Below, in pieces: positions 1,023-28,840 of a stretch of 55,702 nucleotides of DNA. The notes beneath the pieces were generated by a model, which was not told where the DNA came from, did no database searches, and was given only the letters and a program-made list of their open reading frames with translations. Where the stretch lies: the NCBI GenBank assembly GCA_030616425.1, contig JAUWXJ010000001.1, positions 1 to 55,702 of the forward strand, written 5' to 3'. How positions within the stretch are numbered: the stretch's first letter is position 1; each line of letters begins with the position of its first letter. Source of the stretch: Desulfobacterales bacterium. GTDB lineage: Bacteria > Desulfobacterota > Desulfobacteria > Desulfobacterales > C00003060. Position numbers and translations under genes: made by a program.

Positions 1023-1925
1023 TCAAGACGTCCCAGAATAGGAAATCGTGGGTTTCATGGAGAGGTGAAATTCTTCCTCTATTGCTTGAACGTCTTCCAT
1101 CCTTTTTGGATCAAGAAATGTCTTATAAATGAGGTCGTTTCTGTCTAGTGGCCTGCCGAGCAATTTCTGCTCAAGCATGGGCAGAGCTTGAATCGATTTG
1201 TCACAGACCGGGTAGTTCCTGTCATCGAGATTGATAATCGCATCAAAGGAGAGATTGGAAATATTGTTGATGTCTACAAGCTTGATATCTCCGGACCGGG
1301 TGAGAAGAAGATTCCCCACACCTGCAAGATCCGGGACATGATTTGCCTCCACGATCATCTTCTTGACCCTTCCTATGAAGCTCTCAACCTTTTCCTTAAC
1401 ACTGTGGATCCATTGATCGCTTGTCGTAACTAAGTCCTCACCTTTGTCACATCCCATGTTACGCAAAAGTGAGATCAAATGGTCTTTGTCCAAATGGCTC
1501 CATGGGTCCAGTACTTCTCCTTTGACATACTCCTGAAGGCCGCAAAGGAGGATTTCGTGTTTTTCATTTCTTGTATAATCTGTCAGAAATTCTTCGGACC
1601 TCGCGACATAATCTGGAGCCAAGTAGGTTCCAACAATCCTTACTCTTTTTAACTCTTCCTCACCATCTTCTATGGTCTTGAACCTCGTTCTATATATCCT
1701 CAACATCTTTAAAGGCTCAGCCCTCGGATAACTCCTCAATCCATCGATCATGATCCCCTTTGTTTCATCTTCCACATCCTCGGGGTCTAATACCTCCATG
1801 ATATGGGAGCGCAACCCTTGACAATAATGCCTCCTGTAAAAATAAATTCCTGGGGCTCTGATAAAGTTGAGTTCCAATATATCTTCGTGATTCAGGGATG
1901 GTTTTTCTCTTATGTCTTCCGGCAT
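1023..1925 (-). CDS. Hypothetical protein, possible atypical kinase-like fold
   Basis: A 300-aa ORF convergent with the SHMT-like gene. I recognise no family. Weak kinase-like motifs: LQEYVKG, PDLAGVGNLLL, IKLVDINN. Confidence 0.5.
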   Translation of the reverse strand: MPEDIREKPSLNHEDILELNFIRAPGIYFYRRHYCQGLRSHIMEVLDPEDVEDETKGIMIDGLRSYPRAEPLKMLRIYRTRFKTIEDGEEELKRVRIVGTYLAPDYVARSEEFLTDYTRNEKHEILLCGLQEYVKGEVLDPWSHLDKDHLISLLRNMGCDKGEDLVTTSDQWIHSVKEKVESFIGRVKKMIVEANHVPDLAGVGNLLLTRSGDIKLVDINNISNLSFDAIINLDDRNYPVCDKSIQALPMLEQKLLGRPLDRNDLIYKTFLDPKRMEDVQAIEEEFHLSMKPTISYSGTS

Positions 1926-2799: not shown

Positions 2800-4059
2800 T
2801 TAACGCAGCCGTTCTATTACGACTTGTGCAAATTCAGAGCACCTTAGTTCACGGCTGCCTGGCATCTGGCGCGCCAAATCGTGAGTTACAAGGCCATCGG
2901 AAATACTTTTCTGCACGGCCTGCTGAATGGCCGAGGCCGCCTCTTCCCATCCCAAAAACTCCAGCATCATGACCCCGGATAGTATCAGTGAGATTGGGTT
3001 GGCCATATCCTGACCAGCGTACTTGGGGGCTGTGCCATGAGTCGCCTCAAAGACTGCACAATTGTCTCCAAGATTGGCCCCAGGGGCCATACCGAGGCCC
3101 CCTACTTGAGCGACCAGGGCGTCAGAGAGATAGTCTCCGTTCAGATTAGGGGCGGCAATCACATGGTAGTCTTCCGGCCTAAGGAGTACTTGCTGAAACA
3201 TCATGTCTGCAATCTTATCTTTGATCACCACCTTACCCGAAGGCACTTTGCCCTCATGCTCCAGCCCACCCTCTGACTCAACGATGATGTGATCCCCGAA
3301 TATCTCACGCGCCACTTCATAGCCCCATTTCATGAAGGCCCCTGCAGTCTACTTCATGATATTTCCCTTGTGCACCAAGGTCACACTCGGAAGGTTGTGA
3401 TCCAAAGCATATTGTATAGCTCTTGCCACCAGCCGCCTTGAAGCTGTTCGGCTCATGGGCTTCATACCAATGGCCGAATCCTTGGCCACATCAACTCCCA
3501 TCTTATCCTTCAGAAAGCCAATAACAGCCTCTGCCTCTTTGCTTTGGGCTTCCCATTCGATCCCGGCATAGACATCTTCTGTGTTTTCCCGAAACACCAC
3601 CATATCGACCCTTTCAGGGTGCCTCATTGGGCTGGGAACACCCTTGATGTATCTAATGGGCCTAACACAGGCATACAGATCGAGTATCTGTCGCAATGCC
3701 ACATTGATACTGCGAATCCCTTCCCCCACCGGCGTAGTCAATGGCCCCTTGATGGCTACAACATAATCCTTAATCGCCTGCAAAGTCGCCTCAGGAAGCC
3801 ATTCACCTGTTTCTTGATATGCCTTCTCCCCTGCCAATACCTCCGACCATATGATCCTGCGGTCGTCTCCGTACGCAAAAGCGATGCCCGCATCCAGGAC
3901 ACCCTTAGCAGCGGCCCAAATATCAGGGCCGATCCCGTCTCCTTCAATAAACGGAACAATGGGCTCGTCCGGAACCAGAAGCTCACCTTGCTCCGTCACG
4001 GTAATCCGACGGGTGTTGCCTTGATCTTTTTCCTCAGTTTCCAATGTCGTTTTCCTCAT
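2800..4059 (-). pseudogene. icd: NADP-dependent isocitrate dehydrogenase interrupted by one in-frame TAG (3349..3351)
   Basis: ORFs 3349..4059 and 2800..3333 are in the same frame. Read together (...[27 protein letters not shown]...) they are colinear with E. coli Icd ([26 protein letters not shown]). The C-terminal half keeps [10 protein letters not shown] and [12 protein letters not shown]. Confidence 0.9.
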
Positions 4060-4070
4060 GAACCCACTTA

Positions 4071-4206
4071 GAAGCTCAAAGCTGAAAGGTCAAAGCCCGC
4101 CCTGGCGCGTCGTTCCCTATGAGCTGCACGGCCAATAAACCCGGCCTGGGCCAGGGCTCAAAGCAAGAAAAAAATTCCGGCTTTCAGCTTTCAGCCTTGA
4201 GCTTTC
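4071..4206. repeat. Nested imperfect palindrome with xxAAAG sub-repeat arms and a conserved core shared with 48379..48444
   Basis: Left arm gaagctcaaagctgaaaggtcaaagcc (4071..4097) pairs with right arm ggctttcagctttcagccttgagctttc (4179..4206). Core motifs aaagcccgccctggcgc (4092..4108) and ctgggccaggg (4146..4156) recur in reverse orientation at 48428..48444 and 48379..48389. Confidence 0.7.
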
Positions 4207-4224
4207 AGCTAACAACAAACGGGC

Positions 4225-6099
4225 TTAACGGGCTGACCATTTCTTAAGATAGATCTGAATAATCGATACTGCTGCCGGAGTTATGCCAGATATCCTGGAA
4301 GCCTGTCCGAGAGAAATCGGCTGAATCCTTGAAAGCTTCTCCTTTACTTCATTCGAGAGTCCAGGAACAGCTTGATAGTCAAAGCTGTCAGGGATTTTTG
4401 TCCCTTCCAGGTTTTTCACGCGTTCAACCTGCTGCATCTGGCGTCGAATATATCCATCGTATTTAACAAGGATGGTGGCTTGTTCAGCTATCTCCTTGTC
4501 AAAAGAAAGAACGCGGCTATCAAGCTTTGCAATATCTTTCAGCTCGACCCCGGGCCTTTTTAGCAGATCCTGCAAGGTGACTGGTTGATTGATAAAGCCA
4601 AGCCCAAGACCTTCGAGGGTAGAATTCACTTCTGGCCTTGGGTTGAGGCGAACATCCGAAAGAAGGGCCAAAAGTCTCTGTACGGCATCACGCTTTTTCT
4701 CAAATTTCTCATAGAGCTCCTCAGACACCAGGCCGATCTGATATCCGAGCTCGCGAAGACGCAAATCTGCGTTGTCCTCCCGCAGGAGAAGGCGATACTC
4801 GGCCCTTGAGGTAAACATCCTATACGGCTCCCGGGTACCTTTGGTTACCAGGTCATCGATCATAACGCCGATATAGGCCTGGTCCCGGACAAGAATAATC
4901 GGGGGGTTTCCTCTCAGATGGTACACAGCATTGATCCCTGCCATGATCCCCTGGCCTGCTGCTTCCTCATAACCAGAGGTGCCGTTTATCTGGCCCGCCA
5001 AAAATAACCCTCGAATCGCTTTACACTCTAAGCTTGGTTTAATCTGCACCGGGTCCACATAGTCATACTCAATGGCATAGCCTGGCCGAACAATCTCCAC
5101 CTGTTCAAGCCCCTCAATAGACCGAAGCATCTTGAGCTGCACATCCACCGGAAGGCTCGTTGAAACACCGTTTGGATAAATCTCTGTGGTTCCGAGCCCA
5201 ATGGGCTCAAGAAAGATCTGGTGTCGGGGTTTATCTGGAAAGCGGACCACTTTATCTTCAATCGATGGACAATAGCGTGCCCCGACCCCTTTTATAACCC
5301 CGGTAAAAAGAGGAGATCGATCAAGACCTGTTTTAATAATATCATGGGTCTTTTCGTTCGTGTAAGTAATGTGACATGGAACCTGCTTTTGACTGATGGA
5401 CTTTGTCTCAAAGGAAAATGGAAGTGGTGGTTCATCTCCGTACTGCGGCGTCAGCCTGGGAAAATCGATCGTACGTCCATCCAACCGAGGCGTGGTGCCG
5501 GTCTTGAGGCGACCTATCCTTAAACCCAAAGATTTCAGGCTGTCTGATAGCTTGTTCGAGGGTGGATCTCCCATGCGCCCTGCAGGAAAATTTTTTAACC
5601 CTATATGGATCAGCCCTCTCAGAAAGGTGCCTGTGGTGAGGATAACTGTTTTCCCAAAAAACCTCTCCTGGATACTTGTTATGATGCCTCTGACCGCACC
5701 ATTCTCCACAATCAGGGCATCTACCAGCCGCTGTTTTATGTCCAGATTCTCCTGGCGCTCCAACACACCCTTCATGCGAAGGCGATATTGTTCTTTGTCG
5801 GCCTGGGCCCTGGATGACTGCACAGCAGGGCCCTTCTTGGTGTTCAGACGGCGGAACTGGATACCAGTAGCATCAATGTTTTTGGCCATCTCCCCGCCAA
5901 GGGCGTCGATCTCACGCACAATATGACCTTTGGCCAAGCCTCCTACGGCCGGATTGCATGACATCTCTCCAATGTGGTCTACGTTAACAGTAACCACCAG
6001 CGTGCTATGCCCCAAGCGGGCTGCAGCCAAAGAAGCCTCGCACCCGGCATGGCCGGCTCCCACCACTATAACGTCGTATGTCTTGGAATATGGTTCCAT
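4225..6099 (-). CDS. mnmG: tRNA uridine 5-carboxymethylaminomethyl modification enzyme MnmG (GidA)
   Basis: 624 aa. N-terminal FAD motif DVIVVGAGHAGCEA and GidA signatures throughout (GLFLAGQINGTSGYEEAAGQG). Confidence 0.95.
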   Translation of the reverse strand: MEPYSKTYDVIVVGAGHAGCEASLAAARLGHSTLVVTVNVDHIGEMSCNPAVGGLAKGHIVREIDALGGEMAKNIDATGIQFRRLNTKKGPAVQSSRAQADKEQYRLRMKGVLERQENLDIKQRLVDALIVENGAVRGIITSIQERFFGKTVILTTGTFLRGLIHIGLKNFPAGRMGDPPSNKLSDSLKSLGLRIGRLKTGTTPRLDGRTIDFPRLTPQYGDEPPLPFSFETKSISQKQVPCHITYTNEKTHDIIKTGLDRSPLFTGVIKGVGARYCPSIEDKVVRFPDKPRHQIFLEPIGLGTTEIYPNGVSTSLPVDVQLKMLRSIEGLEQVEIVRPGYAIEYDYVDPVQIKPSLECKAIRGLFLAGQINGTSGYEEAAGQGIMAGINAVYHLRGNPPIILVRDQAYIGVMIDDLVTKGTREPYRMFTSRAEYRLLLREDNADLRLRELGYQIGLVSEELYEKFEKKRDAVQRLLALLSDVRLNPRPEVNSTLEGLGLGFINQPVTLQDLLKRPGVELKDIAKLDSRVLSFDKEIAEQATILVKYDGYIRRQMQQVERVKNLEGTKIPDSFDYQAVPGLSNEVKEKLSRIQPISLGQASRISGITPAAVSIIQIYLKKWSAR

Positions 6100-6108
6100 G
6101 TGAAGCCT

Positions 6109-6128
6109 CCCCGCCCTGAAGGGCGGGG
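6109..6128 (-). other. GC-rich hairpin immediately upstream of the mnmG Shine-Dalgarno sequence and start
   Basis: ccccgccc-tgaa-gggcgggg: an 8-bp stem with a 4-nt loop. On the minus strand it is followed by aggcttcacATG, so its 3' arm abuts or overlaps the GGAGG. There is no U-tract. Confidence 0.5.
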
Positions 6129-6156
6129 CTTGCGGGGAGCGAGCCGGTCAAGAATA

Positions 6157-6894
6157 CTACTTCCTTCTCTGTCTCATAACCTCGTACAAGACGACGGCTC
6201 CAGCTACAGCAGCATTAAGCGAGTCAACTAAGTTCCTCTGCGGAACAGATACAAGATAGTCACAAGTCTTTCGAACCAAAGGACGTATCCCCTTGCCTTC
6301 ACCCCCGATGACAAGGACCAAACCAACATTGAAATCAGCCTCATCTGCCCGTTGCTCTGAACCGGCATCGGCCCCCACTACCCAAAGGCCTGCCTTCTTG
6401 AGTTTTTTCAAGGCTGCCACAAGGTTAGTAACCCGAGCTATCAATGTATGCTCCATGGCTCCAGAAGAAGCCTTTGAAACCGAGGGGACCAAAGGAGCAG
6501 AACGGTTTTTAGCAAGCACGATACCGTGGGCGCCCATGGCGAGTCCGGTCCTGATAAGGGATCCCAGGTTTTGTGGGTCTTCAATCCCATCCAGGGCCAT
6601 AACTATCGGAAGCTCACCATCGGTTTCGGCCTTTCTGAGGATAGCGTCTATATCTACCAGCGGATAATCACTGACACGGGCTGCAACGCCTTGGTGTACC
6701 GAGGCGCCCAGGCGCGATCTAAAATAATCCGGCGCTTTATGCTGTATGGGGATCCCCTCGGCCTGAGCACGTTCCAAAAGGTCCTGAATACCTTTGGCGC
6801 GTCGACTCTTTGACACATACAGCCCTTTGAACTCCCGCCGTCCTGCCACCAAGGCCTCATAAACCGGATGGATCCCATAAAGAAGATCATTCAT
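6157..6894 (-). CDS. rlmB: 23S rRNA (guanosine-2'-O)-methyltransferase, SpoU/TrmH family (RlmB-like)
   Basis: 245 aa. N-terminal L30e-like substrate-binding region and a SpoU methylase domain (LDGIEDPQNLGSLIRT, LVIGGEGKGIRP, SLNAAVAG). Confidence 0.85.
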   Translation of the reverse strand: MNDLLYGIHPVYEALVAGRREFKGLYVSKSRRAKGIQDLLERAQAEGIPIQHKAPDYFRSRLGASVHQGVAARVSDYPLVDIDAILRKAETDGELPIVMALDGIEDPQNLGSLIRTGLAMGAHGIVLAKNRSAPLVPSVSKASSGAMEHTLIARVTNLVAALKKLKKAGLWVVGADAGSEQRADEADFNVGLVLVIGGEGKGIRPLVRKTCDYLVSVPQRNLVDSLNAAVAGAVVLYEVMRQRRK

Positions 6895-7456
6895 GCAAGC
6901 GTGCTTTTCCGATTATGGCTTTCAGTTCCGAAACCGCCTTTAGCAGATCATCATTGACAATCACATGATGATACCGCTCGGCCTCTGCCATTTCTGCTTT
7001 GGCGCTGTTCAGCCGCTGCTCAATCGCCTCAGCTGAGTCCATGCCCCGTTCCGCAAGTCGCCGCTTCAGTTCCTCCATGGATGGTGGTGCTATGAAGACC
7101 AAAATAGCTTCAGGATATTTGGGGTAGAGTCTTTTGGCCCCCTCAACGTCAATGTCAAACAGGATGTCGTAGCCCCTGTTAAGGCTGTCTACTAGAAATT
7201 TGGCCGGCGTGCCATACAGGTGGCCATGTACTTCAGCCCATTCGGCCAACTCACCAGAGTCTATCTTCTTACGAAAGGCAGCATCACTGATAAAATAGTA
7301 GTCTACGCCATCCCGCTCATTCCCGCGAAGGGGACGCGTAGTATACGAAATCGAATACTGAAGCGATAGATCTTCTCTCAAGATCGCTTTCAGAATAGTT
7401 GATTTCCCCGCCCCAGAAGGTGCAGATATGATGAACAGATGTCCTTTTTTTGCCAT
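6887..7456 (-). CDS. gmk: Guanylate kinase
   Basis: 189 aa. P-loop SAPSGAGKST, TTRPLRGNERDGVDYYF. Overlaps the rlmB start by 8 nt. Confidence 0.95.
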   Translation of the reverse strand: MAKKGHLFIISAPSGAGKSTILKAILREDLSLQYSISYTTRPLRGNERDGVDYYFISDAAFRKKIDSGELAEWAEVHGHLYGTPAKFLVDSLNRGYDILFDIDVEGAKRLYPKYPEAILVFIAPPSMEELKRRLAERGMDSAEAIEQRLNSAKAEMAEAERYHHVIVNDDLLKAVSELKAIIGKARLHE

Positions 7457-7467
7457 AACGCACGGTC

Positions 7468-7752
7468 TTATAAGCTGCCCGGAGCCTTTTTCTTATCCTC
7501 CTTGAATTCAATCCCCGTCACAAACCGCTGCGATATGGTCTCGGCTTGAATAGCCGAGAGTATGACGTGGTTGCTGTCGGTAATAATAATAGAACGCGTA
7601 CGACGCCCCTGGGTAGCGTCAATTAACCGCTTCCCCTCCTTTGCATCCTCCTTGAGCCGTTTCATGGGAGCCGAACTTGGCGTCACAATGGTCACTATAC
7701 GACTGGCAACGACTGTGTTTCCAAATCCGACGTTCAGCAAGGTCGTATCCAT
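7468..7752 (-). CDS. remA: RemA/DUF370 family regulator
   Basis: [64 protein letters not shown] is typical of RemA. I prefer the internal ATG (MDTTLLNVG) to the ORF-track start at 7782. Confidence 0.85.
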
Positions 7753-7890
7753 TATCTCCTCCAGAGGTTTGTCTCTCGTCATTCGTTATTCGCGGCTCGT
7801 TACGTTTTACGTCCCACGGTTACCGAAACGAGCTGCGCAACCGAGAAACGATATACGATTCACCATTTCTCAGTCACTTGCAATCCTTTA

Positions 7891-8772
7891 CTACTCTATA
7901 TTCTGAACCTGCTCTCTGAGTTTCTCCAGTTCGCTCTTGATTCCCACAACAATCTGGGATAACTTCACATCCCCTCCCTTTGAACCGATCGTGTTAACCT
8001 CCCTGTTGAGCTCTTGGAGCAGGAAATCAAGAGTCCTTCCGGCTGGTGCCTCCGATTCGATCATGTCTAGAAACTGTTTCAAATGACTCTCGGCACGAAC
8101 TATCTCCTCTGTAATATCACTCTTGTCTGCTATAAAAGCCGCTTCTTGAGCCAATCGATTTGGATCTATCTCCACCGTGCCCTGTGTAAGTGCAGCTATG
8201 CGTTCCTCCAAGCGACTATGATAATGTGACAATACGGACGGAGCCAATTCTTTTATGCGGGAGAGGCCCTCCTGAACAGACCGCAAACGTTCCATAAAGT
8301 CCTGGTAGATGGCCTTGCCCTCTGATACACGCATGGCATTTACTTCCTCTAAGGCCGAACCTATACACGATGAAAGAACCGACCAGGTTTTTTCAAGATC
8401 TTCTTCAGGTTCTGTAGTCGTAATGACCCCGCGCATGCCCAAGAGTGTTCCAAGCCCGACCTTTTCGTCAATTTTTAGGGTTTCGCTCAGCTCGGATAAG
8501 GCCCTGTAGTATTCTTTGGCCAGGGGTAGATTAACATCGATGTCAGGAACCGCTTGCGAACCATTCTTAACTTTAATCATCACCTCCACCCTGCCACGCG
8601 AAATCTTGGTCGCGACCAGCTTTTTGATCTGATCCTCGAGAGGAAGAAACCGCTGAGGCATACGTACAATGACCTCTCCGTAGCGACTATTGACCGAACG
8701 TATCTCTATGGTAAATGTGCGACCCTCAACTCTCTTTTCCGCCCTGCCAAAGGCGGTCATACTCTTGATCAT
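7891..8772 (-). CDS. yicC: YicC-family stress-induced protein/endoribonuclease
   Basis: 293 aa. MIKSMTAFGR N-terminus and C-terminal DUF1732 motif (LDFLLQELNREVNTIGSK). Confidence 0.9.
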   Translation of the reverse strand: MIKSMTAFGRAEKRVEGRTFTIEIRSVNSRYGEVIVRMPQRFLPLEDQIKKLVATKISRGRVEVMIKVKNGSQAVPDIDVNLPLAKEYYRALSELSETLKIDEKVGLGTLLGMRGVITTTEPEEDLEKTWSVLSSCIGSALEEVNAMRVSEGKAIYQDFMERLRSVQEGLSRIKELAPSVLSHYHSRLEERIAALTQGTVEIDPNRLAQEAAFIADKSDITEEIVRAESHLKQFLDMIESEAPAGRTLDFLLQELNREVNTIGSKGGDVKLSQIVVGIKSELEKLREQVQNIE

Positions 8773-8810
8773 GGTATCACCGAATCTTTCTGTCCTTTCC
8801 TGCTATAAGG

Positions 8811-9329
8811 TCACAATTTATACAAATATCTCTCTCTGACACATCTCAGAAACCGTATGATTGGCTCCCCTGCATAGTCGGGATACGTCCAGTCCAACGC
8901 ACGAAAACGACCCTTGTAGAAAATCAGGGTCAGGTCTGCATAAATTCCTGTCCTCAGATAAATGCGATGGGTATAATTCTTCCCGGTTGCAAGCACAAAC
9001 CGTTCTGGCAGTAAGTATCCGGGATCGATGTTGACAAGTCGCTTCCCCTGGGCCGAATACTCACCTTCCAAATCGTTCGTAAAAAGCTTTATGTCAGCCA
9101 GGGCGTCCTGCTGAATCAATTCACGGAAGGTCATAAATCGCCTGAAAAGGGGCGAGCCCATCTCAGGGGTATAGTAATCTGTATACTCAAAGGGAAGCCA
9201 CGGGCTGACAATATCTATTGGGCCGAAGGCTTCAGACAGCTTACGAGCCACATCGACCAGAACCTCTTTATCCCTGGTGAAACAATTAATAACCAGCTTG
9301 GCAGGCTCAGGGCTTCGAGGCTTACTCAT
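8811..9329 (-). CDS. DUF4416 family protein
   Basis: 172 aa. The pattern PAKLV..., YYTPEMG, VNIDPGYL, THRIYL, WTYPDY matches my recollection of DUF4416. Function unknown. Confidence 0.6.
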   Translation of the reverse strand: MSKPRSPEPAKLVINCFTRDKEVLVDVARKLSEAFGPIDIVSPWLPFEYTDYYTPEMGSPLFRRFMTFRELIQQDALADIKLFTNDLEGEYSAQGKRLVNIDPGYLLPERFVLATGKNYTHRIYLRTGIYADLTLIFYKGRFRALDWTYPDYAGEPIIRFLRCVRERYLYKL

Positions 9330-9332
9330 CGC

Positions 9333-10637
9333 CTACGGCCGCCCAACACTGGTATAGCGGAATCCTATGGCTCGCATCCGCTGTGGATCATAGATGTTCC
9401 GCAAATCGACCACAATCAGTCGTTTCAAGAGCTTCTTGATCCTTCCCCAGTCTATATTTCGGAACTCGTTCCATTCTGTGGCAAGGACCAAGGCATCAGC
9501 CCCTTCAGCTACTGCGTACAAATCTTCTTTATAGTCAACATCCTCAAGGTATCTTCTAGCCTGTTCCATCCCTGCAGGATCATACGCCTGGATCTTTGCC
9601 CCTTTCTCCTGTAGGCCTTTGATAATGGGAATTGTGGGAGATTCACGCATATCGTCTGTATTCGGCTTGAATGTCAGGCCAAGGATCCCTATGACCGCTC
9701 CCTTCGATTGCTCGCCCAAGGCTGAGATAATCTTTTCGATCATCATCACAGGGCGTTCCTCGTTCACCCTTATCACCGCATCAACGATCTTGAACTCATA
9801 CCCGTATTGTCTAGCAATTTGACTGACAGCCCGTGTATCTTTAGGAAAACAAGACCCCCCAAACCCTGGTCCGGGATGCAAGAATTTGGAGCCAATCCGC
9901 CTGTCAAGGCCCATACCCTTGGCCACCTTATGTACATCTGCGCCAGCCCGCTCACAGATGGCTGCCATTTCGTTGATAAAGGATACCTTGGTGGCCAAAA
10001 AGGCATTGGAGGCATACTTGATCATCTCAGCTGTCACTACGTCGGTAATCACAAATGGGGTTTCAATCAGATAGAGCGGCTTGTAAAGGTCCTTTAGAAT
10101 AGCGATAGCCTGTTCACTCTCGGCACCAATTACGACCCGGTTGGGACGCATGAAATCCTCTACTGCTGCGCCCTCCCTCAAGAATTCAGGATTGGAGGCC
10201 ACGTCAAAGCCGCACGGCTCGGTCTGGTTTTCCTTGATAATAGTCTCAATCAGCTTACCGGTACCCACTGGAACTGTACTCTTTGTAACCACCACCTTAT
10301 AGCCGTTCATGGTCTGACCTATAGATCTGGCTACCTCTTCTACATATTTTAGGTCAGCGCCCCCTTCCTGGTCGGATGGGGTACCCACTGCAATAAGAAT
10401 CACCAGGGCATTTTGGACACCCTCTTTGATATCAGTAGTAAAAAAGAGGCGTTCATCCTTAATGTTCTTCTGTACCAGTTCGGCCAGTCCAGGTTCGTAA
10501 ATCGGAATCTTGCCTTGATTCAGCAGCTTGATCTTGGACGCGTCTCTGGCTACACAGGTTACATGCAATCCGAACTCAGAAAAACAGACCCCTGTGACAA
10601 GCCCAACATATCCTGCACCAACAACACAAATGTTCAA
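9333..10637 (-). CDS. ugd: UDP-glucose 6-dehydrogenase
   Basis: 434 aa. Rossmann N-terminus MNICVVGAGYVGLVTG and catalytic region GFGGSCFPKD. Confidence 0.95.
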   Translation of the reverse strand: MNICVVGAGYVGLVTGVCFSEFGLHVTCVARDASKIKLLNQGKIPIYEPGLAELVQKNIKDERLFFTTDIKEGVQNALVILIAVGTPSDQEGGADLKYVEEVARSIGQTMNGYKVVVTKSTVPVGTGKLIETIIKENQTEPCGFDVASNPEFLREGAAVEDFMRPNRVVIGAESEQAIAILKDLYKPLYLIETPFVITDVVTAEMIKYASNAFLATKVSFINEMAAICERAGADVHKVAKGMGLDRRIGSKFLHPGPGFGGSCFPKDTRAVSQIARQYGYEFKIVDAVIRVNEERPVMMIEKIISALGEQSKGAVIGILGLTFKPNTDDMRESPTIPIIKGLQEKGAKIQAYDPAGMEQARRYLEDVDYKEDLYAVAEGADALVLATEWNEFRNIDWGRIKKLLKRLIVVDLRNIYDPQRMRAIGFRYTSVGRP

Positions 10638-10662
10638 CTTATATCTCCCCCTTCAATATTAT

Positions 10663-11715
10663 TTAAGCCGCAACCATTTTCCGGGCCAGCATCTCTTTAA
10701 CAGCCTCAACCACATCGTCTGGGGTAATCAGATTGACGTCGTTCCCTTTCCTCAAAACCATGTGGCCTTCTCCCCAGGGGGCCCATATCTGAGGGTTGTT
10801 CCTGCCAAATAGAGCGAGCGTGGGTGTGCCTACTGCAGCCGCAACGTGCATTGGACCTCCCTGCAGCGTCACAAAGAGATCGCACTGCGCAATCATCCCC
10901 GCAAAATCCTTTATACTTCTTGAGCAGTACAAAGGCACATCGGCACTTAGCTTCTTTAAAAGCCCTGTTACGTGTTGCACTTCATATGGAGCGGTTGTCA
11001 CGATTATCTGTAGGCCTTCAGCTACGAGTGATTCAATAACTTTCAAATAATTTTGATCTTCCCAGTATCGCCCCTCTTCCAAGCGTCGGCTGTAGTTCAA
11101 GCACACCAACGGTTTTTGGTAGAAAATACCAGATTTTGATAGAAATTTCCGAGCTTTCTCTACGTTATCATCGAAACACCTCAAAATCAACCTCTTTTCA
11201 TCAATATCCACCCCTATTCTTCTCAATACGTGCAACGAGCGCTCCACTTCATGAACCGATTCTTTCATGGGCTTTACGAATATGTTGTAAAAAAAAGAGT
11301 GCTTCTCATGTCTCTTTGATGGTTCTATTCCCAGCCGATAACGGGCACGACTCGCATAGACCAGCCAGCCTTGAGACGGCGAAAATTCAGAGCGGATCCC
11401 AATAGCAAGGTCAAAATGGTCATCCCTGATTTCCCGTAAAACTTGCCACTGCTTCCACCAGGCAGTCAATACGAATTTATATCTTCCGTGTTTTGCCTTG
11501 TCATAGACGTAGACCTTATCCAGATAAGGATGCCCAGTAACAATCTCTTCTGTAAGACGGCAGACAAGAATAGCAATGAATGCGTCTGGGAAATGTCGCC
11601 TCAACGCCTCAATACAAGGCAAAGTGCAAACAACATCACCTATATTGTCATTCCTGACCAGCAGGATTTTTCTTATTTCTGATTTCTGAAAAGGGGGTGT
11701 TGTCTGACCGCACAT
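10663..11715 (-). CDS. Glycosyltransferase family 9 (heptosyltransferase-like)
   Basis: KILLVRNDNIGDVVCTLP N-terminal motif and C-terminal GGPMHVAAAVGTPTLALFG. The ATG overlaps the upstream TAA (TAATG). Confidence 0.85.
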   Translation of the reverse strand: MCGQTTPPFQKSEIRKILLVRNDNIGDVVCTLPCIEALRRHFPDAFIAILVCRLTEEIVTGHPYLDKVYVYDKAKHGRYKFVLTAWWKQWQVLREIRDDHFDLAIGIRSEFSPSQGWLVYASRARYRLGIEPSKRHEKHSFFYNIFVKPMKESVHEVERSLHVLRRIGVDIDEKRLILRCFDDNVEKARKFLSKSGIFYQKPLVCLNYSRRLEEGRYWEDQNYLKVIESLVAEGLQIIVTTAPYEVQHVTGLLKKLSADVPLYCSRSIKDFAGMIAQCDLFVTLQGGPMHVAAAVGTPTLALFGRNNPQIWAPWGEGHMVLRKGNDVNLITPDDVVEAVKEMLARKMVAA

Positions 11716-12869
11716 TAGACCGAGCTTAATCTCCTTAATACGTTCTCTATTCTTTCAGCACGATTTTGCCATGTGATGTTTGAGACATCCAAGAATGCCT
11801 GTTCAGCGACTCTGGCTGACAACTCTTTATCCTCCAATAGTCTGCTAATACCCTGTGATAGTGACTTTGGGTCATCCGGTTTCACCAGGATACTGTTATG
11901 ACCGTCCGTGAGTACTTCTCTTATAACAGGTATGTCAGAAGCAACGACTGCCATCTTCGCGGCCATATACTCAAATAACTTCAAAGGGCAAGTGAAGCTT
12001 GAATCCGGGGAGGTGACCAGGGGCAGAACAGCTATATGCCCATCCTTCAAAAACGATTTCACGTCTTGAGGTGGAACCTGGCCATGGAAAGAAATTCGCT
12101 CTGAAACGCCCTTGGCCGATGATAGCTCCTTCAATCGCTGTATCGACTCTTCAGAACCGCCCACTATATTAACTACGGCATTCTCAAGGAACTGCATCGA
12201 CTCGATCAGGCACTCGACCCCTTTCCAAGGATAAAGCTGACCCACGTACAGGATTTTGCCGTTGGTTCTTGGTTCCTTTCCCCGAAAGGACTCTACAATC
12301 TCCCTGCTGACTCCGTTCCTGATAACATGAACCCTGTCACTTGGAACAAAAAACTTCTTCTCTATCAGGGCCTTAATTGTTTCGGAGTTCGTAACAATCC
12401 GATCAAACGCGGTATATACCAAGACTTCCAGTCTCTTTACCTTTTTCTTTTTGGAAGTTACAGAGAAAAGTTCGTGTGCTTCAAAGATGAAAGGAAGCCC
12501 AATCCTCCTTTTGAACCTTAACAGAAAGGACGCTAATTTAAGATGCCTTAAATATATACAGCTGTGTGCCCCTTTTCTTACAAGCTCCAATATCTTTAAT
12601 AAGCAGAATAGATTAAAAACTAAGCCCCACGAAATTCTTATTCTTCCCTCATAACCTAGCCTCATCATCGGAACTGTGTGAATCCTAAGGCCATCAACAG
12701 GCTCAAGGCCAAAACGCCCAAGCAGCTCCCCTTCAGACTCTGACAGGCACCCGGTTATTATATCTACCTCACACCCCAAACTCGCCAGTGCATGACATGT
12801 ATTCATTATTTGTATAAATCTAGCCTTTCGAGTTGTTATCGGCTCACTTACAGGATAGATAATCCGCAT
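11715..12869 (-). CDS. Glycosyltransferase family 4 (GT-B fold)
   Basis: 384 aa. C-terminal GT1/GT4 region (CPLKLFEYMAAKMAVVASDIPVIREVL). Confidence 0.8.
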   Translation of the reverse strand: MRIIYPVSEPITTRKARFIQIMNTCHALASLGCEVDIITGCLSESEGELLGRFGLEPVDGLRIHTVPMMRLGYEGRIRISWGLVFNLFCLLKILELVRKGAHSCIYLRHLKLASFLLRFKRRIGLPFIFEAHELFSVTSKKKKVKRLEVLVYTAFDRIVTNSETIKALIEKKFFVPSDRVHVIRNGVSREIVESFRGKEPRTNGKILYVGQLYPWKGVECLIESMQFLENAVVNIVGGSEESIQRLKELSSAKGVSERISFHGQVPPQDVKSFLKDGHIAVLPLVTSPDSSFTCPLKLFEYMAAKMAVVASDIPVIREVLTDGHNSILVKPDDPKSLSQGISRLLEDKELSARVAEQAFLDVSNITWQNRAERIENVLRRLSSV

Positions 12870-12978
12870 AAATTACCACAGTTTGAAAAATTACGTTTAC
12901 TGCAAATATCCCGCGACAGGGTCACACCAAGTCATTTCTTAATCGATCATCTATTGATCATAGTGAGTATCTCTTCCT

Positions 12979-14745
12979 CTAGTTTCTCACGCCTTGTTCT
13001 AGGACTACAAGAAAGTTCTCTATCATTAACGCATCTATTCTCCTGTCTTGAAGGGCCTTAATAGCCTCTGCTGGTTTGCAAATAATCGGTTCCTCATGAA
13101 CATTAAAGCTGGTGTTCAAGATAAGGGGTATCCCGCTCAAACGATAGTAGGCATCGATTATATCATAATATCTGGGATTATCCTCTCTGGCCACAACCTG
13201 CGGCCGTGCTGTACCGTCAACGTGGATTACGGCCGGAATCTTTGACCGCCACTTTTCATATACGTCAAATATAACCGTCATAAACTTTGACGTATATGCG
13301 CCCTTTACATAGTTTTTGAATATATCATCTGCATAAGGCGCCAAAACGCTGGGGGCAAACGGCATAAACTCGGTCCTGTCCAATCTCTCGTTGAGCCAGT
13401 CGTTGATTGTCTTGTCTGTAGGAGCGGCCAGAATACTCCTGTTTCCAAGGGCTCTCGGACCAAACTCCATTCTGCCCTGAAAACATCCAACAACCCTGCC
13501 AGAATGAATTAGATTTGCTACTTTCCTGGCAAGATCCTCAAAAGCATAGCGTCTGTATGAAAGCCCGCTTTCCTTCAAGACCTTCTCTATTTCAAGTTCG
13601 TCATAGGAAGAGCCCCAATACACGTCATCAAGTTTGGCCCTGACTTCCCATAAGCGATCCTCATCATTGTCATACATTCCTGAAAGGGCTGTCCCAACAG
13701 CATTTCCAGTATCACCCATCGCTGGAAAAACAAATATCTCTTCCACCTCATCAAGTTCCGCAATTTGATGATTTAACTTTACGTTGGCAAAAAGACCTCC
13801 ACTCAGGGCGACGCGGCTTACCTTATATTTCCTTAAAGCTCTCTGCACATGCCTTACGATAACCTCTTCTACAAGCTGCTGAGCTGCTGCAGCCACGTCC
13901 GCTGGTTCATGTGAGCGAATCAGTTTCTTCAAGTATCTAAATCTTTCACCTTCCCCGCCCTTTTCGAAAAAATCCGACACAAAAGTCATTTTGTCAGGAG
14001 ACAGTCTCAAGCACGGCCTCATTAAATCGAGCAACTTTGAAGGATCGCCATAGGCAGATAGACCCGTTATTTTGCCTTCATGCCTCAAAGGCTTAAATCC
14101 CAAAAGTTTAGTAATGTCACAGTAGAAAAGACCCGGTGAAGCCTCTGCGCCTCTAGAAATAGCTACACGGCGGAGCTTTTTGTCAATAAACAGGCTGGTC
14201 GTGTGGAATATTCTGTCATCCCCTATGCCATCTATAGTTACTACCAGCACCTCATCCCAGTTGGAAAAATACATGGCAGGCCAAGCATGCGCCAGATGAT
14301 GGTCGCAAAAACGCCATTTGATAGAATTTAAACCAAAATCCTTGTGGAACTTTTCCCATCTGAAATGATTCTCCAGGGTCTTTTCATGTTTCTTCAGTTT
14401 GTCAGCAAGATTTGCCACAAGGAGCACTGACTTAAATGTCTCCCCTTTGAGATATGACTTCAGCCGCCGCCTTGCACGTACCCATTTCCTTTCCAGTTCT
14501 TTGTAAAGGGTCTCACGAACGAAGTATTCCTCTGGCATAAAAGTCATAAGGAGAGAGAGAAAATCGATGCCTTTTGAGGAAATGCCAGTATACTTATAAA
14601 TCTCCTCCAAGCTGAGCAGAGGGAGATCGTCGCTATCGCATTTTATTCGGCTCAACCTTTCTTCGGAAATGGCTGCCGAAATTCGGCCGTCTTGCAGTAT
14701 AGCGACCGAGGCATCATGCCCGCTGTGAAGACCCAATATATTCAT
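12979..14745 (-). CDS. Carbamoyltransferase, NodU/CmcH family
   Basis: MNILGLHSGHDASVAILQDGRISAAISEERLSRIK N-terminus and C-terminal NTSFNVHEEPI. I use the internal ATG at 14745; the ORF-track start at 14826 would overlap the upstream gene. Confidence 0.9.
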   Translation of the reverse strand: MNILGLHSGHDASVAILQDGRISAAISEERLSRIKCDSDDLPLLSLEEIYKYTGISSKGIDFLSLLMTFMPEEYFVRETLYKELERKWVRARRRLKSYLKGETFKSVLLVANLADKLKKHEKTLENHFRWEKFHKDFGLNSIKWRFCDHHLAHAWPAMYFSNWDEVLVVTIDGIGDDRIFHTTSLFIDKKLRRVAISRGAEASPGLFYCDITKLLGFKPLRHEGKITGLSAYGDPSKLLDLMRPCLRLSPDKMTFVSDFFEKGGEGERFRYLKKLIRSHEPADVAAAAQQLVEEVIVRHVQRALRKYKVSRVALSGGLFANVKLNHQIAELDEVEEIFVFPAMGDTGNAVGTALSGMYDNDEDRLWEVRAKLDDVYWGSSYDELEIEKVLKESGLSYRRYAFEDLARKVANLIHSGRVVGCFQGRMEFGPRALGNRSILAAPTDKTINDWLNERLDRTEFMPFAPSVLAPYADDIFKNYVKGAYTSKFMTVIFDVYEKWRSKIPAVIHVDGTARPQVVAREDNPRYYDIIDAYYRLSGIPLILNTSFNVHEEPIICKPAEAIKALQDRRIDALMIENFLVVLEQGVRN

Positions 14746-14767
14746 ATCACTGACTGTCCGTAAAAAG

Positions 14768-15523
14768 TTACTCCCTGCACTTTGAAGCTTCAATAATGAT
14801 ACAATCCCCGAAAAGCATGGCATCACTCAATGTCCCTTCGTCGGGGAAGTTTCGGTTGCGGATCGTATATCGAATAACAGCGGCCACCACCTTGTGAAGG
14901 TACTTTTTAAAAGTGCTCTGCGGGAACACAATCGTATTTGTGTCGATCCTCTCCACACTCAGACCCTTATTTTCCATAAAGTATTTCAACTGCCAAAAGT
15001 AGATAGGAGAAATGTGCCCCTGTAACCCCTCGGCCCGCAGACTTCCCCTGTTGTGCATGAGCGGCTTGAATCGGGGATAATAGCCGGTCAACATAAATCG
15101 CAGGCGCCCATCCACTGACATTATGTTCGGCGTGGAGATATAAAGCCATCCACCGGTTCTTAAAACTCTTCCCAGTTCATCAATAAATTAAAATGGGTTC
15201 ACAAAATGTTCTAGACCCTCAAGACAAAAGATGTAGTCAAACGACTCATCTTTAAACGGGAGTCTGTCATAAACATCACCCGTTAAAAAATGGGCATGCC
15301 CAGACAATTTAAAATCTTCTCTGTTAATATCGAGGCATACGATGTCGGAAAACCCCTTTTTGATCAATTCACTGGCAAATGCACCTTCCCCAGAAGGAAT
15401 ATCGAGTGTTTTCCCTGGTTCCTTGCCTTCCAAGAGTCCCAAAACTTGTGGGTACAAATTTTCGTCAGGGACATGGGCAAGGATCTCCCCCTCTGTCTTT
15501 GTACATCGCATAGACCTATGCAA
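14768..15523 (-). pseudogene. Class I SAM-dependent methyltransferase interrupted by one in-frame TAA (15188..15190)
   Basis: ORFs 15188..15523 and 14768..15121 are in the same frame. Read-through gives LDIPSGEGAF...FCLEGLEHFVNPF*FIDELGRVLRTGGWLYISTPNIMSVDG, an intact SAM-MT motif I to post-II arrangement spanning the stop. Confidence 0.85.
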
Positions 15524-16751
15524 CCTCTTGAAAGATACCCAATAGCTTTGTGGCTATTTCTTCAAGATGAAACTCGCGACTCATCCTCAACGCATTCTCT
15601 TGATAAATCTCTTGTCTCTCTGCCGGGTAAGCAAAAAAATCACACAATGCCTCCCCAAGCGCTTACCCATCCGCGGCCTTTATCACGGTACCCGCATCAT
15701 AGGATGTAACCCAGTAAGAAATCCCTGCACCCTCAGTGGTAATTGAGGGGGTTCCCACTGAACCCGCCTCCACGGTTACCATGTTCAGCCCCTCTCCCAG
15801 TGAAGGGTTCAGGTTCACCTCAGCTGAGGCCAGATACTCGAGCACCTCATTCGGATGTACCCTTCCCACGAAACTAATTCTATCTGTGAGGCCCAGTCTC
15901 GCAAATTTTGTCTTCACGGACTCCATATACTCGTTCACCGGACCCACAAAAATTACAAACAAAGAGGGCAGGTGCCCTCTTGCTGACTGCAAGGCATCAG
16001 GTATTAGATACATCCCTTTACAGTAATCACCGCCGCTTACAGCGACTGCTATCCTGAAATCGCTGGAAATCCCCAATTGTTGAGTTAATTTTTCTCTGCA
16101 CATCCTCCGAAACTGAGCAAGGTCGCCTCTTGAGCTAAATAGCTTCTGAGCAGCCATGTGTGATGGACAAATCCTTATCTTCTTCGCCTGCCCACCATCC
16201 TTTAATATAACGTCTTTCAGGAGTGGGGAAACTGGTCTCAGAATGTCGGCATGTTTGTATACTAGTTGAAACATCCTGTTGTTGAAACGTGTGCGGCGCT
16301 GCCCACAATCGGCTTCGGGAATGTCCAGAATGTCCCCCCCTATAAAGCTGACAACCAGGGGTTTATGAAAAAGTCCGAATCTCTTGAGGAGACCGGCTGG
16401 AACAGCATAGGAGTATCCATCAGAGCAGATAACAACATCTGCATCCCGGAAAATCCGAAGCGCGTTTCTGATAACGGCCATTGTGTGAAAGAGGTTTCTC
16501 CCTTTAAACTTCTCCTTTGTCAACACATCAAGGGGCCAGGTTAATATCTTTCTCCATTCTCTATGTGAATTATACCAAAGCGTCTGGATCCCATCGCCTT
16601 CTTCTTTAAAGAAATCCCTCAGTACGCAATGGAATTCCCTCAGGTTCTTGTCTTGCTCCAGCACATACACAGAGTGCCCCATTCTGACAAACTGAAGCAG
16701 AATAGGATATTCTCCGGTCCATGAGTTTGGATGAAGATACAATATCTTCAA
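15516..16751 (-). pseudogene. Glycosyltransferase family 4 interrupted by one in-frame TAA (15663..15665)
   Basis: After ...GTVIKAADG*, the same frame continues as ALGEALCDFFAYPAERQEIYQENALRMSREFHLEEIATKLLGIFQEVA to a TAG ending at 15516, overlapping the next gene's start. That is a typical GT4 C-terminal helix region. The likely start is TTG at 16751 (MKILYLHP) with an AAGGGG SD; the ORF track starts at 16850. Confidence 0.8.
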
Positions 16752-16945
16752 AATACTGCCCCTTTTGTAACGCTTTAGATCTTTCCTTTTAGATGAGGAG
16801 AGAGTTTTTTGAGAAAGCCGTGATACCGTGGACTTGGCAGGATGCTTCAATCAAGCTTGGTGAGTATTATCACGGCTTTTGAGAAAAATTCCCTCCTCAT
16901 CCAGGCACGTCATACTTTCAAAGAGCTAAAGTGTTACCCTCCTTT

Positions 16946-18841
16946 TTACAAGGTTACGTTTTCAAGTCTGAGCCAATGGCAGAGAATCAAGAGGGTCCAT
17001 AGCTTCTTGGCATGGGACTTCGCACCTGATCCGTGCTCTTCCAATAGCCTTTCGATCATTTCACTTTTTACAATCTTGTGAAGATTCGTTTTTGCCAGAA
17101 GTTCGTCCCGTAAGTATTCAAAAAGATCCTCTCTTAACCACTTGGAAACCGGGGCTGAGAAGCCCATCTTGGAGCGATTCTTAAAGCTCTCAGGTAGCCA
17201 ATCAGAAAATGTGTCTTTCAATATCCGCTTGCCTTCACCAGACAGCCGTCTCTTGTAATGCCCCGGCAAGCTCACTGCAAACTCTATCAACTCATGATCC
17301 AGAAAAGGCGACCGACTTTCAAGGGAATTCATCATGCTGCATATATCTACCTTAAACAGGATGTCTTCAGGTAGATATGTTTTTTGATCTATGTAAAAAT
17401 ACCTGTTAAATATGTCGTCTGTCTCATACCGTTCCACAAATTTCCTCAAATAGTCTACCGTGCCATGAGGGCCGGTAATTTGTCTCATCTGCTTAGTATA
17501 GAACATCTCTTTTTCATTGTCTGAAAAAAATGCAAGAAGATAATGATAGCGTTCAAGACCTTTTAGCCCCAGAATCTCATCGCCTTTTGATGTTGGGAAT
17601 CTTTTGTTCCGCCGCCTTTTATTGAAAAGCCTTTCCAAAGATAGTACTAGTTTTCTGATATATATCCATAGGCCTATACTGTAGAAATGTTCTAAATAGT
17701 CAGCTCTCGCTGCTAGAGTAAACCTCCTGTAACCACCAAAGGACTCGTCCCCTCCGTCTCCGGTGAGTACGACTTTCAGATCCCTTCCTGCAAAATTAGA
17801 AACGTAGTATGTCGGTATGGCAGAAGAATCCGCCATGGGCTCGCCAAAGGATTTGACCAAATTCGGAAGGATGTCAATCGCCCGAGGCTTCACGATCATC
17901 TCATTATGATCCGTTCCATATCTATCGGCAATTTGTCTTGCATAGGGAAGTTCATTGTAAGACTCATCCTCAAAGCCTATAGAATAAGTTTTGATAGGTT
18001 CGTCCGAAAATGTGCTCATCGCCGCAACAGTGAGACTAGAATCAATACCTCCGCTCAGAAAGGCGCCTATAGGTACATCGCTAATCATCCTTATCTTTGT
18101 TGCTTCCAAAAATATGCTTCTCAGCCTCTCACAGGCCTCGTAATAGCCAATCTTCTCCCTCTTTTCGACAGGCAAATCCCAGTAACATACAACCTTTTTA
18201 ATAAGCCCATCTTTTACAATCATGAAATGACCAGGGGGAAGTTTTGAAATGGACTTGTACCCCGTCATGGGAGACGGAATATACTGAAACGTAAAAAAGA
18301 AATCTATCGCCCTGTAATTTATACGCCTGGAAATGGACTCGTTCAAGGAAAATAGCCCCTGAATTTCAGATGCAAAATAAAACCCTTCTGGCTGTTCTGT
18401 ATATATCAGAGGCTTAACACCCATACGGTCCCTTGCAAGGAACAAAAGCCCTTCGTTGCGGTCCCACAAGGCAAACGCAAACATTCCTCTCATGTACTTG
18501 AGACAGTCCACACCATACTCCTCATAGAGATGTATGACTGTCTCGGTATCACTTTTGGTCTTAAACTCGTGGCCTTTTTTCAACAAGGTTTGCCTAAGCT
18601 CAGGGAAATTATATACCTCACCATTGTACGTTATCCACACGGATTCATCCTCATTGGCCATGGGCTGTTGACCTGTGTCAACATCTATGATCGACAGGCG
18701 GCTATGGGCAAGCCCCACCCGACCATCCGTAAAATAGCCCTTTTCATCAGGGCCCCTGTGGTGCAGGGTTTGTGATGCTCTTTTCAAAGCATCCTCAGAC
18801 CCTTTCCCGTCCTTTAGGAAAAATCCTGCAATCCCGCACAT
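16946..18841 (-). CDS. asnB: Asparagine synthase (glutamine-hydrolysing)-family amidotransferase, copy 1
   Basis: 631 aa. N-terminal MCGIAGFF (Ntn Cys2) and PP-loop SGGIDSS. Confidence 0.9.
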   Translation of the reverse strand: MCGIAGFFLKDGKGSEDALKRASQTLHHRGPDEKGYFTDGRVGLAHSRLSIIDVDTGQQPMANEDESVWITYNGEVYNFPELRQTLLKKGHEFKTKSDTETVIHLYEEYGVDCLKYMRGMFAFALWDRNEGLLFLARDRMGVKPLIYTEQPEGFYFASEIQGLFSLNESISRRINYRAIDFFFTFQYIPSPMTGYKSISKLPPGHFMIVKDGLIKKVVCYWDLPVEKREKIGYYEACERLRSIFLEATKIRMISDVPIGAFLSGGIDSSLTVAAMSTFSDEPIKTYSIGFEDESYNELPYARQIADRYGTDHNEMIVKPRAIDILPNLVKSFGEPMADSSAIPTYYVSNFAGRDLKVVLTGDGGDESFGGYRRFTLAARADYLEHFYSIGLWIYIRKLVLSLERLFNKRRRNKRFPTSKGDEILGLKGLERYHYLLAFFSDNEKEMFYTKQMRQITGPHGTVDYLRKFVERYETDDIFNRYFYIDQKTYLPEDILFKVDICSMMNSLESRSPFLDHELIEFAVSLPGHYKRRLSGEGKRILKDTFSDWLPESFKNRSKMGFSAPVSKWLREDLFEYLRDELLAKTNLHKIVKSEMIERLLEEHGSGAKSHAKKLWTLLILCHWLRLENVTL

Positions 18842-18848
18842 GACTCAG

Positions 18849-19973
18849 TCATCTGCCCCCTGTGAGGTTGCGAAAGGCCTCTAGATGTCTCCCGGCATTG
18901 GCAGCCCATGTGAAGTGCTCAACAACACGCTCTCTTGCACTAGCGCCATAAGATCTTCTTAGGTCATCATCTTCCAATATCTTAATTACAGCGCCCGCTA
19001 ATGCCTCTCTGTCCCTGGGAGTAACCAAAAACCCAGTCTGTCTATCAATTATGATTTCGGGAATTCCTCCAAGCCGACTCCCAATAGCTGGAATTCCGCA
19101 AGCCATTGCCTCTACCAGAGTGATGCCAAATGCCTCTTCAGCGATACTGGGCTGGACCATCACGTCAGCAAGGGAAATGTATTCCGGCAATCTCTCGTGT
19201 GGAATTTCTCCAACAAAAATTACTGAATCTTCTAACTTCATTTCTCTGCATTTTATCTGTAAGACATCCAGGTATTCACCCCCACCTACAATCACCCAAC
19301 TGACATCAGGTATCACCTTTTTAATAGCAGGTAACGTATCCATCAGTACCTGCAATCCTTTCCAACCAACCACTCGACCGACCGTAATGATTACCTTGCT
19401 CTCTTTTAGCCCCAGGCTGGCAGCTAAATTCAGATCCCTTTCTCCGGGCTTGAATTTGTCTATGTCAACCCCGTTGTGAATAACCTCAACCGGAACTTTA
19501 TAGTGAGTCCGGAGCTGATCTGCGTTGTAATGTGAACTGGAAATGAAATAGTCAACACAACGCACAAAAAAGCGATCAGTCATATAAAATTCTCGTCCCC
19601 CTGAGCGGTATACGACCTTAAAATCCTTCTTGCGTTTCGACCAAAACATAGCCGGAAAATCAAATGGTTTAACAATCACCACAATGTCATAATCCTGTGA
19701 GAGGAAAAAATGTCGGGCATTGTATACAAATGTGAGGCGCTCTATCAGGCGGCTACCGCGGGTTCCGCCCACTGGCACTTTTTCAGCAGGATAGAAGGGA
19801 AACGTGACGACTCGAACACCCGGAATCTGCAGTCCCCGTGACCCTGGTGGCTTGCCACCCAGGATATCTATCGTACATCCGAGCTTTGCTAACTCCGATG
19901 CCAACTCTCGACAATACGTTTCTAAACCACCGACCAGAACAGTGGTTGTAACGTTAAAAAAGCAAACCCGCAT
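18849..19973 (-). CDS. Glycosyltransferase family 4
   Basis: MRVCFFNVTTTVLVGGLETY N-terminus and EAFGITLVEAMACGIPAIGSRLGGIPEII. The ATG at 19973 is preceded by a GAGGA SD; the ORF-track start at 20039 would overlap asnB. Confidence 0.85.
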   Translation of the reverse strand: MRVCFFNVTTTVLVGGLETYCRELASELAKLGCTIDILGGKPPGSRGLQIPGVRVVTFPFYPAEKVPVGGTRGSRLIERLTFVYNARHFFLSQDYDIVVIVKPFDFPAMFWSKRKKDFKVVYRSGGREFYMTDRFFVRCVDYFISSSHYNADQLRTHYKVPVEVIHNGVDIDKFKPGERDLNLAASLGLKESKVIITVGRVVGWKGLQVLMDTLPAIKKVIPDVSWVIVGGGEYLDVLQIKCREMKLEDSVIFVGEIPHERLPEYISLADVMVQPSIAEEAFGITLVEAMACGIPAIGSRLGGIPEIIIDRQTGFLVTPRDREALAGAVIKILEDDDLRRSYGASARERVVEHFTWAANAGRHLEAFRNLTGGR

Positions 19974-19984
19974 TCTACAATCCT

Positions 19985-21865: not shown

Positions 21866-22056
21866 TTTGATTCTCGTTGCTGGTTTTATAACAATCTCAT
21901 CAACTTAAGGTGTAATTTCACAGGACAAGGGACATCGCCTCTCTTCGGCATCCAATGCCTTCAAAAGGTATGCTGTTATGGTCGATGGAAATGGCTGTAT
22001 GCCTGCGTTCAGCGATATTCCTCGCCCTGTGTCGTGGATAGGGAACGGGTCTTAAG

Positions 22057-28500: not shown

Positions 28501-28631
28501 AGACTCTATTCTTACTTCTCAGTAGGGGTCTTAAGCTTTCACAGGCATTTGCCAAAACAGCTGCACACCTATGTTTAAAAGAGCCCGTTTAAAGCAGCAG
28601 CTCCAGCAACACCCGTTTCACCTTTGACCCT

Positions 28632-28805
28632 TCAGGTTTCTATTGACTTTGCTTCATCGATGAGCATGATGGGAATATCATCCCTGATCTCATAAAGGAG
28701 TTTACACTTATCACAGATAAGTCCATCCTTTGTCTCATTCATATAAATGTCCCCTTTGCACTTAGGACAGGCCAAGATATCTAATAACTCCTGGCTGATT
28801 GCCAT
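28632..28805 (-). CDS. Trm112/YcaR (UPF0434) family small zinc-ribbon protein, 57 aa (below the ORF-track cutoff)
   Basis: My own translation is MAISQELLDILACPKCKGDIYMNETKDGLICDKCKLLYEIRDDIPIMLIDEAKSIET, with CPxC...CxxC and the IPIML(I)DEA motif typical of the family. Confidence 0.8.
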   Translation of the reverse strand: MAISQELLDILACPKCKGDIYMNETKDGLICDKCKLLYEIRDDIPIMLIDEAKSIET

Positions 28806-28840
28806 AACTTTACCCCCTTTCCAGAGAAATAGTTACAACT

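Follow-up and report, generated by a model that had tools for sequence, protein, structure and literature searches.

Three private in-frame stop codons in otherwise intact genes of a Desulfobacterales contig

Three interrupted genes in a 55,702-bp contig

The stretch of DNA analyzed here (the window) is an entire 55,702-bp contig of a metagenome-assembled genome (MAG), whose proteins find their best matches in Desulfobacterales or Thermodesulfobacteriota MAGs. Nearly all of its ~50 genes lie on the minus strand, and three of these, encoding an isocitrate dehydrogenase (icd), a methyltransferase and a GT4 glycosyltransferase, each carry one in-frame stop codon. The stops had been placed in a preliminary description of the contig, and all three were found at those positions, on the minus strand and with homology continuing in frame on both sides. 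The span from the first stop to the last is 12,316 bp. Truncated products of the GT4 gene (P0242) and the methyltransferase gene (P0373 and P0374) occur in the public protein record, and the stops are part of the deposited sequence.

As relatives we used environmental contigs that come from this population or from a sister one (94-98% nucleotide identity), which were compared by blastn projection onto window coordinates. These are L087 (JGI, 96.3% identity, window 2806-5953), L081 (Logan, 96.5%, window 11295-15733), L083-L086 (JGI, 94.2-96.1%, up to window 8835-21877), L082 (Logan, 92.8%, window 15476-17441) and L088 (JGI, window 14760-15999), the last being 98.1% identical within the methyltransferase gene.

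The icd gene (2800..4059, minus strand) encodes an NADP-dependent isocitrate dehydrogenase across 419 codons with a single interruption, a TAG at codon 237 (3349-3351) directly after ...HKGNIMK, which includes the conserved KGNIMK loop motif. When the stop is read through, the product matches the NCBIfam model TIGR00183 (prok_nadp_idh) with 608 bits over residues 15-418, and the nearest proteins, from JGI metagenomes, share 94% and 92% identity with it. At plus-strand base 3349, the window has C and L087 has G, the L087 codon being TAC (Tyr). Among 120 homologues, this column holds Tyr in 108, His in 5, Phe in 4 and Cys in 3, with a stop in none. Another private change, from GAA to GCA (Glu239Ala; 3343..3345, minus strand), lies 5 nt away from this stop; residue 239 is Glu in 119/119 homologues and Ala in the window. 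Together, the stop and Glu239Ala look like a local error cluster in a housekeeping enzyme. Across the whole of icd, the window deviates at four columns that are ≥95% conserved (E239A, R282K, T303A and A316V). Two intact relatives, P0001 and P0002, show 4 and 3 deviations at such columns and the neighboring housekeeping genes 0, which may reflect either somewhat weaker constraint on icd in this clade or noisy metagenomic sequences.

The second interrupted gene (14768..15511, minus strand; 247 codons) encodes a class I S-adenosylmethionine (SAM)-dependent methyltransferase, and its only interruption is a TAA at codon 108 (15188-15190). The Pfam profiles Methyltransf_11, Methyltransf_23 and Methyltransf_25 run across the stop, the first two covering residues 28-154, and intact orthologues of 246-247 amino acids (aa) are found in P0121 (96%) and in P0372 from L088 (99%). 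NCBI gene calls divide the window gene into pieces of 107 aa (P0374) and 117 aa (P0373). Plus-strand base 15189 is T in the window and G in all relatives, with TCA (Ser) at the site in six contigs (L081, L083, L084, L085, L086 and L088). In ~120 homologues, the column is occupied by Thr, Val, Pro, Ser, Ala and other residues and never by a stop. Compared with L088, its nearest relative, the gene differs at 10 synonymous and 3 missense codons in addition to the stop.

The GT4 glycosyltransferase gene (15516..16850, minus strand) adjoins the methyltransferase and comprises 388-444 codons, with a start at 16850, 16751 or 16682. Its in-frame TAA (15663-15665) lies 48 codons before the natural TAG at 15516-15518, and the Pfam domain Glycos_transf_1 (residues 220-387) crosses it. 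L082-L085 carry intact orthologues, 388 or 444 aa in length, and the NCBI call for the window gene is the 339-aa truncated product P0242. Plus-strand base 15665 is A in the window and T in all relatives, and six contigs (L081-L085 and L088) have AAA (Lys) at the site; the column in ~120 homologues holds Ala, Gly, Pro, Gln, Glu and other residues, never a stop. Divergence from L088 jumps at the methyltransferase/GT4 boundary, from 1.9% in the methyltransferase gene to ~11.6% in the last 161 GT4 codons, where 28 codons differ synonymously and 24 non-synonymously. The jump suggests allelic replacement or recombination inside the polysaccharide cluster. In the next GT4 gene, private codon changes involving several bases are likewise densely packed at ~12045-12140.

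We looked for further breaks by scanning mechanically for pairs of long segments in one frame with a single stop between them, and by means of gene tiling and Pfam profiles. The scan recovered the three stop sites, and the only other minus-strand pairs were boundaries between distinct genes. Candidate breaks at 9333, 34674 and 49373, along with overlapping open reading frames (ORFs) at 34674-35622, were rejected as the boundaries ugd/DUF4416, HepT/acyltransferase and lpxA/lpxI and a HepT/MntA pair. An apparent compensated pair of indels at 19425/19446 relative to L083 and L084 was a blastn artefact in a variable stretch of equal length and not a frameshift, and a 644-bp gap (28501-29144), considered as a gene remnant, was discarded since it contains a 57-aa zinc-ribbon ORF. 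The genes tile the contig tightly, and each of the 30 further genes scanned aligns with its Pfam profile over the whole length. The preliminary description had noted no comparable break elsewhere in the window, and indeed the remaining ~47 genes are full-length and free of frameshifts and further stops. The count is 3 internal stops versus 0 frameshifts in ~50 genes, or ~54 internal stops per Mbp.

Related sequences and constraint on the interrupted genes

Each stop is one transversion from the sense codon of the relatives (TAC to TAG, TCA to TAA and AAA to TAA) and is private to the window contig. Every related contig covering a site carries the sense codon there, and no stop was observed at the three positions in 6-7 related contigs or in ~120 homologues per gene. 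The same truncated products were not found from any other assembly among ~15 billion proteins, and 90%-identity protein clusters hold matching truncated fragments only from the window contig. Exact-product look-ups for mnmG, yicC, P0242, the icd N-terminal fragment and gmk returned no record from an independent assembly. Among GTDB species representatives, no same-species genome was found (the best YicC match was 81% identical), and the loci that were found there are without the methyltransferase and GT4 genes.

A stop was seen at a different site in one of the relatives. L083 and L084 are JGI contigs from sister samples, 99.96% identical with 6 bases that differ, and were compared over the orthologue of window 10663-11715 (L083:13127-14182 versus L084:12095-13150). 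A 29-bp stretch contains three of the differences, each a change to T in L083; one of them converts GAA to TAA, splitting a GT9 heptosyltransferase into gene calls of 136 aa and 201 aa. This triple change looks like a local read-error cluster absorbed into the assembly, and we conclude that error-like nonsense calls do occur in assemblies of this population.

We also examined selection on the interrupted genes. Measured against the related contigs, they have dN/dS values of 0.21 (icd), 0.24-0.44 (methyltransferase) and 0.22 (GT4), and the intact genes mnmG, ugd and the carbamoyltransferase gene have values of 0.21, 0.27 and 0.21. Neither relaxed constraint nor an additional lesion was detected in the three interrupted genes, and their dN/dS equals that of intact neighbors; the stops therefore either are very recent or are not biological. 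The fact that all three lesions are transversions was considered as a clue and set aside as uninformative, since most one-step routes to stop codons are transversions and the ratio of transitions to transversions among private changes is normal. No Illumina sequence-specific error motifs (GGC or GG-T contexts) were seen at the three sites when these were checked by eye.

Origin of the stops

Terminators were tallied at 49 gene ends, of which 17 are TGA, 16 TAA and 16 TAG. The examples of normal termination cited in the preliminary description were correct (TAA at mnmG and icd, TAG at rlmB and asnB-2, TGA at gmk and comF), as was its judgment against codon reassignment, which is ruled out given that all three stop codons end genes evenly and that the interrupted sites align to three different amino acids. 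Two signs of unusual decoding that it had raised, read-through motifs 3´ of the stops and suppressor tRNAs, were absent from the window. The 3´ contexts differ among the stops (TAG-A, TAA-T and TAA-G), the structure predicted in the 83 nt from each stop was no better than in shuffled controls (z = -0.02, -0.46 and +0.14), and the window contains no Rfam family at gathering threshold and no tRNA gene.

A stop inside a conserved frame is all that the window has in common with stop codon reassignment or with pyrrolysine and selenocysteine recoding, and nothing beyond the in-frame stops themselves speaks for TAG or TAA having been reassigned or for either amino acid being inserted. Some Desulfobacterota encode a pyrrolysine system, and to our knowledge no known recoding system uses TAA, the codon at two of the three sites. 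In-frame stops total only 3 in ~17,000 codons; they align to Tyr (for the TAG), Ser and Lys in the relatives, stop codons otherwise end genes normally, and there is no recoding RNA element in the window. We thus regard an altered code or programmed recoding as next to impossible. Real stops also could leave the genes working at a reduced level, as 'pseudo-pseudogenes', through basal read-through or a nonsense-suppressor tRNA. The coding sequence past each stop is intact and in frame, with dN/dS well below 1, though the low dN/dS is equally explained by stops too young to matter. Classical Tyr-amber and Lys-ochre suppressors insert residues that match the icd TAG (Tyr) and GT4 TAA (Lys) sites, which is a lead rather than a test. 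Given that TAA and TAG each end 16/49 genes, an efficient suppressor would be costly. Tolerated in-frame stops have been claimed to be frequent (Belinky et al., 2021; IJMS 22:1876, PMC7918605), but the criterion in that study is an orthologous stop in ≥2 species, and the three window stops are conserved in no second lineage. Reduced-level decoding of this kind therefore appears improbable. A natural nonsense-suppressor tRNA in the lineage, for example of the Tyr-amber or Lys-ochre type, allowing nonsense alleles to persist in expressed genes including icd, is very improbable; if there were one, further stops of this kind would be expected elsewhere in the genome.

Our preferred explanation, to which we give a probability of roughly 0.45, is that the stops are consensus or base-call errors or minority alleles, and not the functional state of the dominant organism. 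The stops are three independent single-base transversions in genes on which purifying selection has acted normally until now. Miscalled bases, mistakes in the consensus or rare variant reads would then have found their way into a Desulfobacterales MAG whose coverage probably is low, and the dominant organism would have intact, normally decoded genes. We infer a technical cause because every relative has the sense codon, constraint is not relaxed, the stops come without frameshifts, icd carries a double change, and a cluster of error-like changes separates L083 from L084. Internal stops have been tied to base miscalls, low coverage and low read quality, and frameshifts to indels (Cooley and Wright, 2024; BMC Genomics 25:365, PMC11017572). 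The window stops are like the spurious stops of that study in lacking accompanying frameshifts, in being absent from close assemblies, in falling in otherwise perfectly conserved genes and in their high local density. In contrast, that study took in no MAGs, and its comparison was at ≥99.9% average nucleotide identity, versus 94-98% for the nearest relatives of the window. Several observations count against errors in the consensus. Nonsense changes make up 2.8% of random coding substitutions, such that three nonsense errors imply ~100 errors, or a rate of ~0.2%, which is high for a short-read consensus. In the region polarized with three lineages, the private changes of the window comprise 47 synonymous versus 29 non-synonymous codons and 69 transitions versus 26 transversions, a spectrum no worse than that of the other two lineages, and most private differences of the contig are genuine divergence. 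The GT4 stop sits in a genuinely divergent allele. Finally, rlmB, gmk, yicC and ugd never deviate at columns with ≥95% conservation, though such counts have too little power to tell a 0.2% error rate from zero error.

Alternatively, the stops may be real, very recent loss-of-function alleles, either young strain-fixed pseudogenes or high-frequency nonsense polymorphisms, and we consider this a serious possibility, if somewhat short of even odds. Such alleles would inactivate icd as well as the methyltransferase and GT4 gene of the lipopolysaccharide (LPS)/polysaccharide cluster, and may be polar on co-directional downstream genes. The stops are present in the public record, each is one mutational step from the codon of the relatives, and the rest of the contig looks accurate, with a natural ratio of transitions to transversions and of non-synonymous to synonymous changes and with conserved neighbors that do not deviate. 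In the 4.4-kb three-lineage region, ~2 of ~30 private non-synonymous changes are nonsense, near the neutral 3.9%. Loss of function also is common among surface-polysaccharide genes. On the other hand, no relative shares any of the stops, and the three genes are free of decay. Loss of icd after the catalytic-loop lysine probably would force a free-living anaerobe to rely on external 2-oxoglutarate or glutamate. In natural pseudogenes, frameshifts usually are at least as common as nonsense changes, so that three lesions, all nonsense with zero frameshifts, are unusual, and 3 of ~50 genes is several-fold over the usual pseudogene load of 1-2%. In-frame stops have been reported to be widespread and to persist only briefly, over the times typical of polymorphism within populations (Belinky et al., 2021; PMC7918605), and the window lesions resemble these young pseudogenes or segregating polymorphisms in being single nonsense changes in constrained genes, with flanks near-identical to intact alleles and dN/dS <1. 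They differ in that they occur in no second genome, giving no sign of persistence or reversal, and in that one lies in central metabolism. Thus, among the explanations that the preliminary description had left standing, an artefact and very recent pseudogenization both fit stops that are private and genes whose constraint is not relaxed, while programmed read-through does not fit stops that are unconserved and without associated elements.

The phenomenon is an ordinary one that falls into known categories, spurious or young internal-stop lesions, and no new mechanism is needed. As it stands, it matters little for biology; its value is as a quality flag, in that the base accuracy and population consensus of the MAG should be checked before loss of icd or an altered LPS is inferred. 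If the stops were fixed, the icd knock-out would imply that an uncultured sulfate reducer of sediments is metabolically dependent on 2-oxoglutarate or glutamate, and the two LPS lesions would represent ordinary loss of function in a surface structure.

Clustering of the stops and the surrounding genes

Two of the lesions fall in adjacent LPS genes, and selection to switch off an LPS modification had been proposed on this basis. We found no statistical support for this proposal, as clustering, adjacency and the share of LPS genes all are at chance level. For three lesions placed at random in coding sequence, the probability of a span ≤12.3 kb is P=0.125, and that of two of the three being in adjacent genes is P=0.11. 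LPS or outer-membrane biogenesis accounts for at least 30 of the ~50 window genes (≥60%), so that two of three lesions in such genes is within chance; the probability of at least two is ~0.65. The two lesions in neighboring surface-polysaccharide genes, which plausibly could be switchable, are reminiscent of phase-variable LPS glycosyltransferase loci. However, phase-variable contingency loci switch by changes in the length of simple sequence repeats, whereas the window lesions are substitutions, with no indel and no repeat tract.

The LPS and outer-membrane genes include bamA, skp, lpxD, fabZ, lpxA, lpxI, lpxB, an msbA-like ABC transporter gene, lptF/G, waaA and lpxK, in addition to several GT9 and GT4 genes, two asnB-like genes and a carbamoyltransferase gene. 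The LPS core/polysaccharide block at 9333-34592 is unusually large. GT9 heptosyltransferase-like genes were confirmed at 10663, 23264 and 25607, and two more GT9-like genes (31478 and 32545) probably are present, as judged by eye rather than by profile scan. The block also contains at least six GT4 genes, the two asparagine synthase-like amidotransferase genes, the carbamoyltransferase gene, a GT2 gene and a polysaccharide deacetylase gene. It adjoins the lipid A genes (lpxK, waaA, lptFG, msbA, lpxB, lpxI, lpxA, fabZ and lpxD), along with skp and bamA.

Three smaller features also were noted. At 34674-35622 (minus strand), a gene for a HepT-like ribonuclease (PF01934) overlaps one for a Pol-beta-type nucleotidyltransferase (PF18765), forming a HepT/MntA-type toxin-antitoxin pair that has the LPS core genes on one side and, on the other, a gene for a B12-binding radical SAM protein transcribed divergently. 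A 300-aa ORF (1023-1925, minus strand) flanked by the first gene and the comF-like gene matches no Pfam profile at E≤1e-5. The 57-aa ORF mentioned above (28632-28805, minus strand) occupies most of what seemed to be the largest intergenic gap; it has two CxxC pairs (MAISQELLDILACPKCKG...CDKCK) and, by eye, resembles a Trm112/YcaR-type zinc ribbon.

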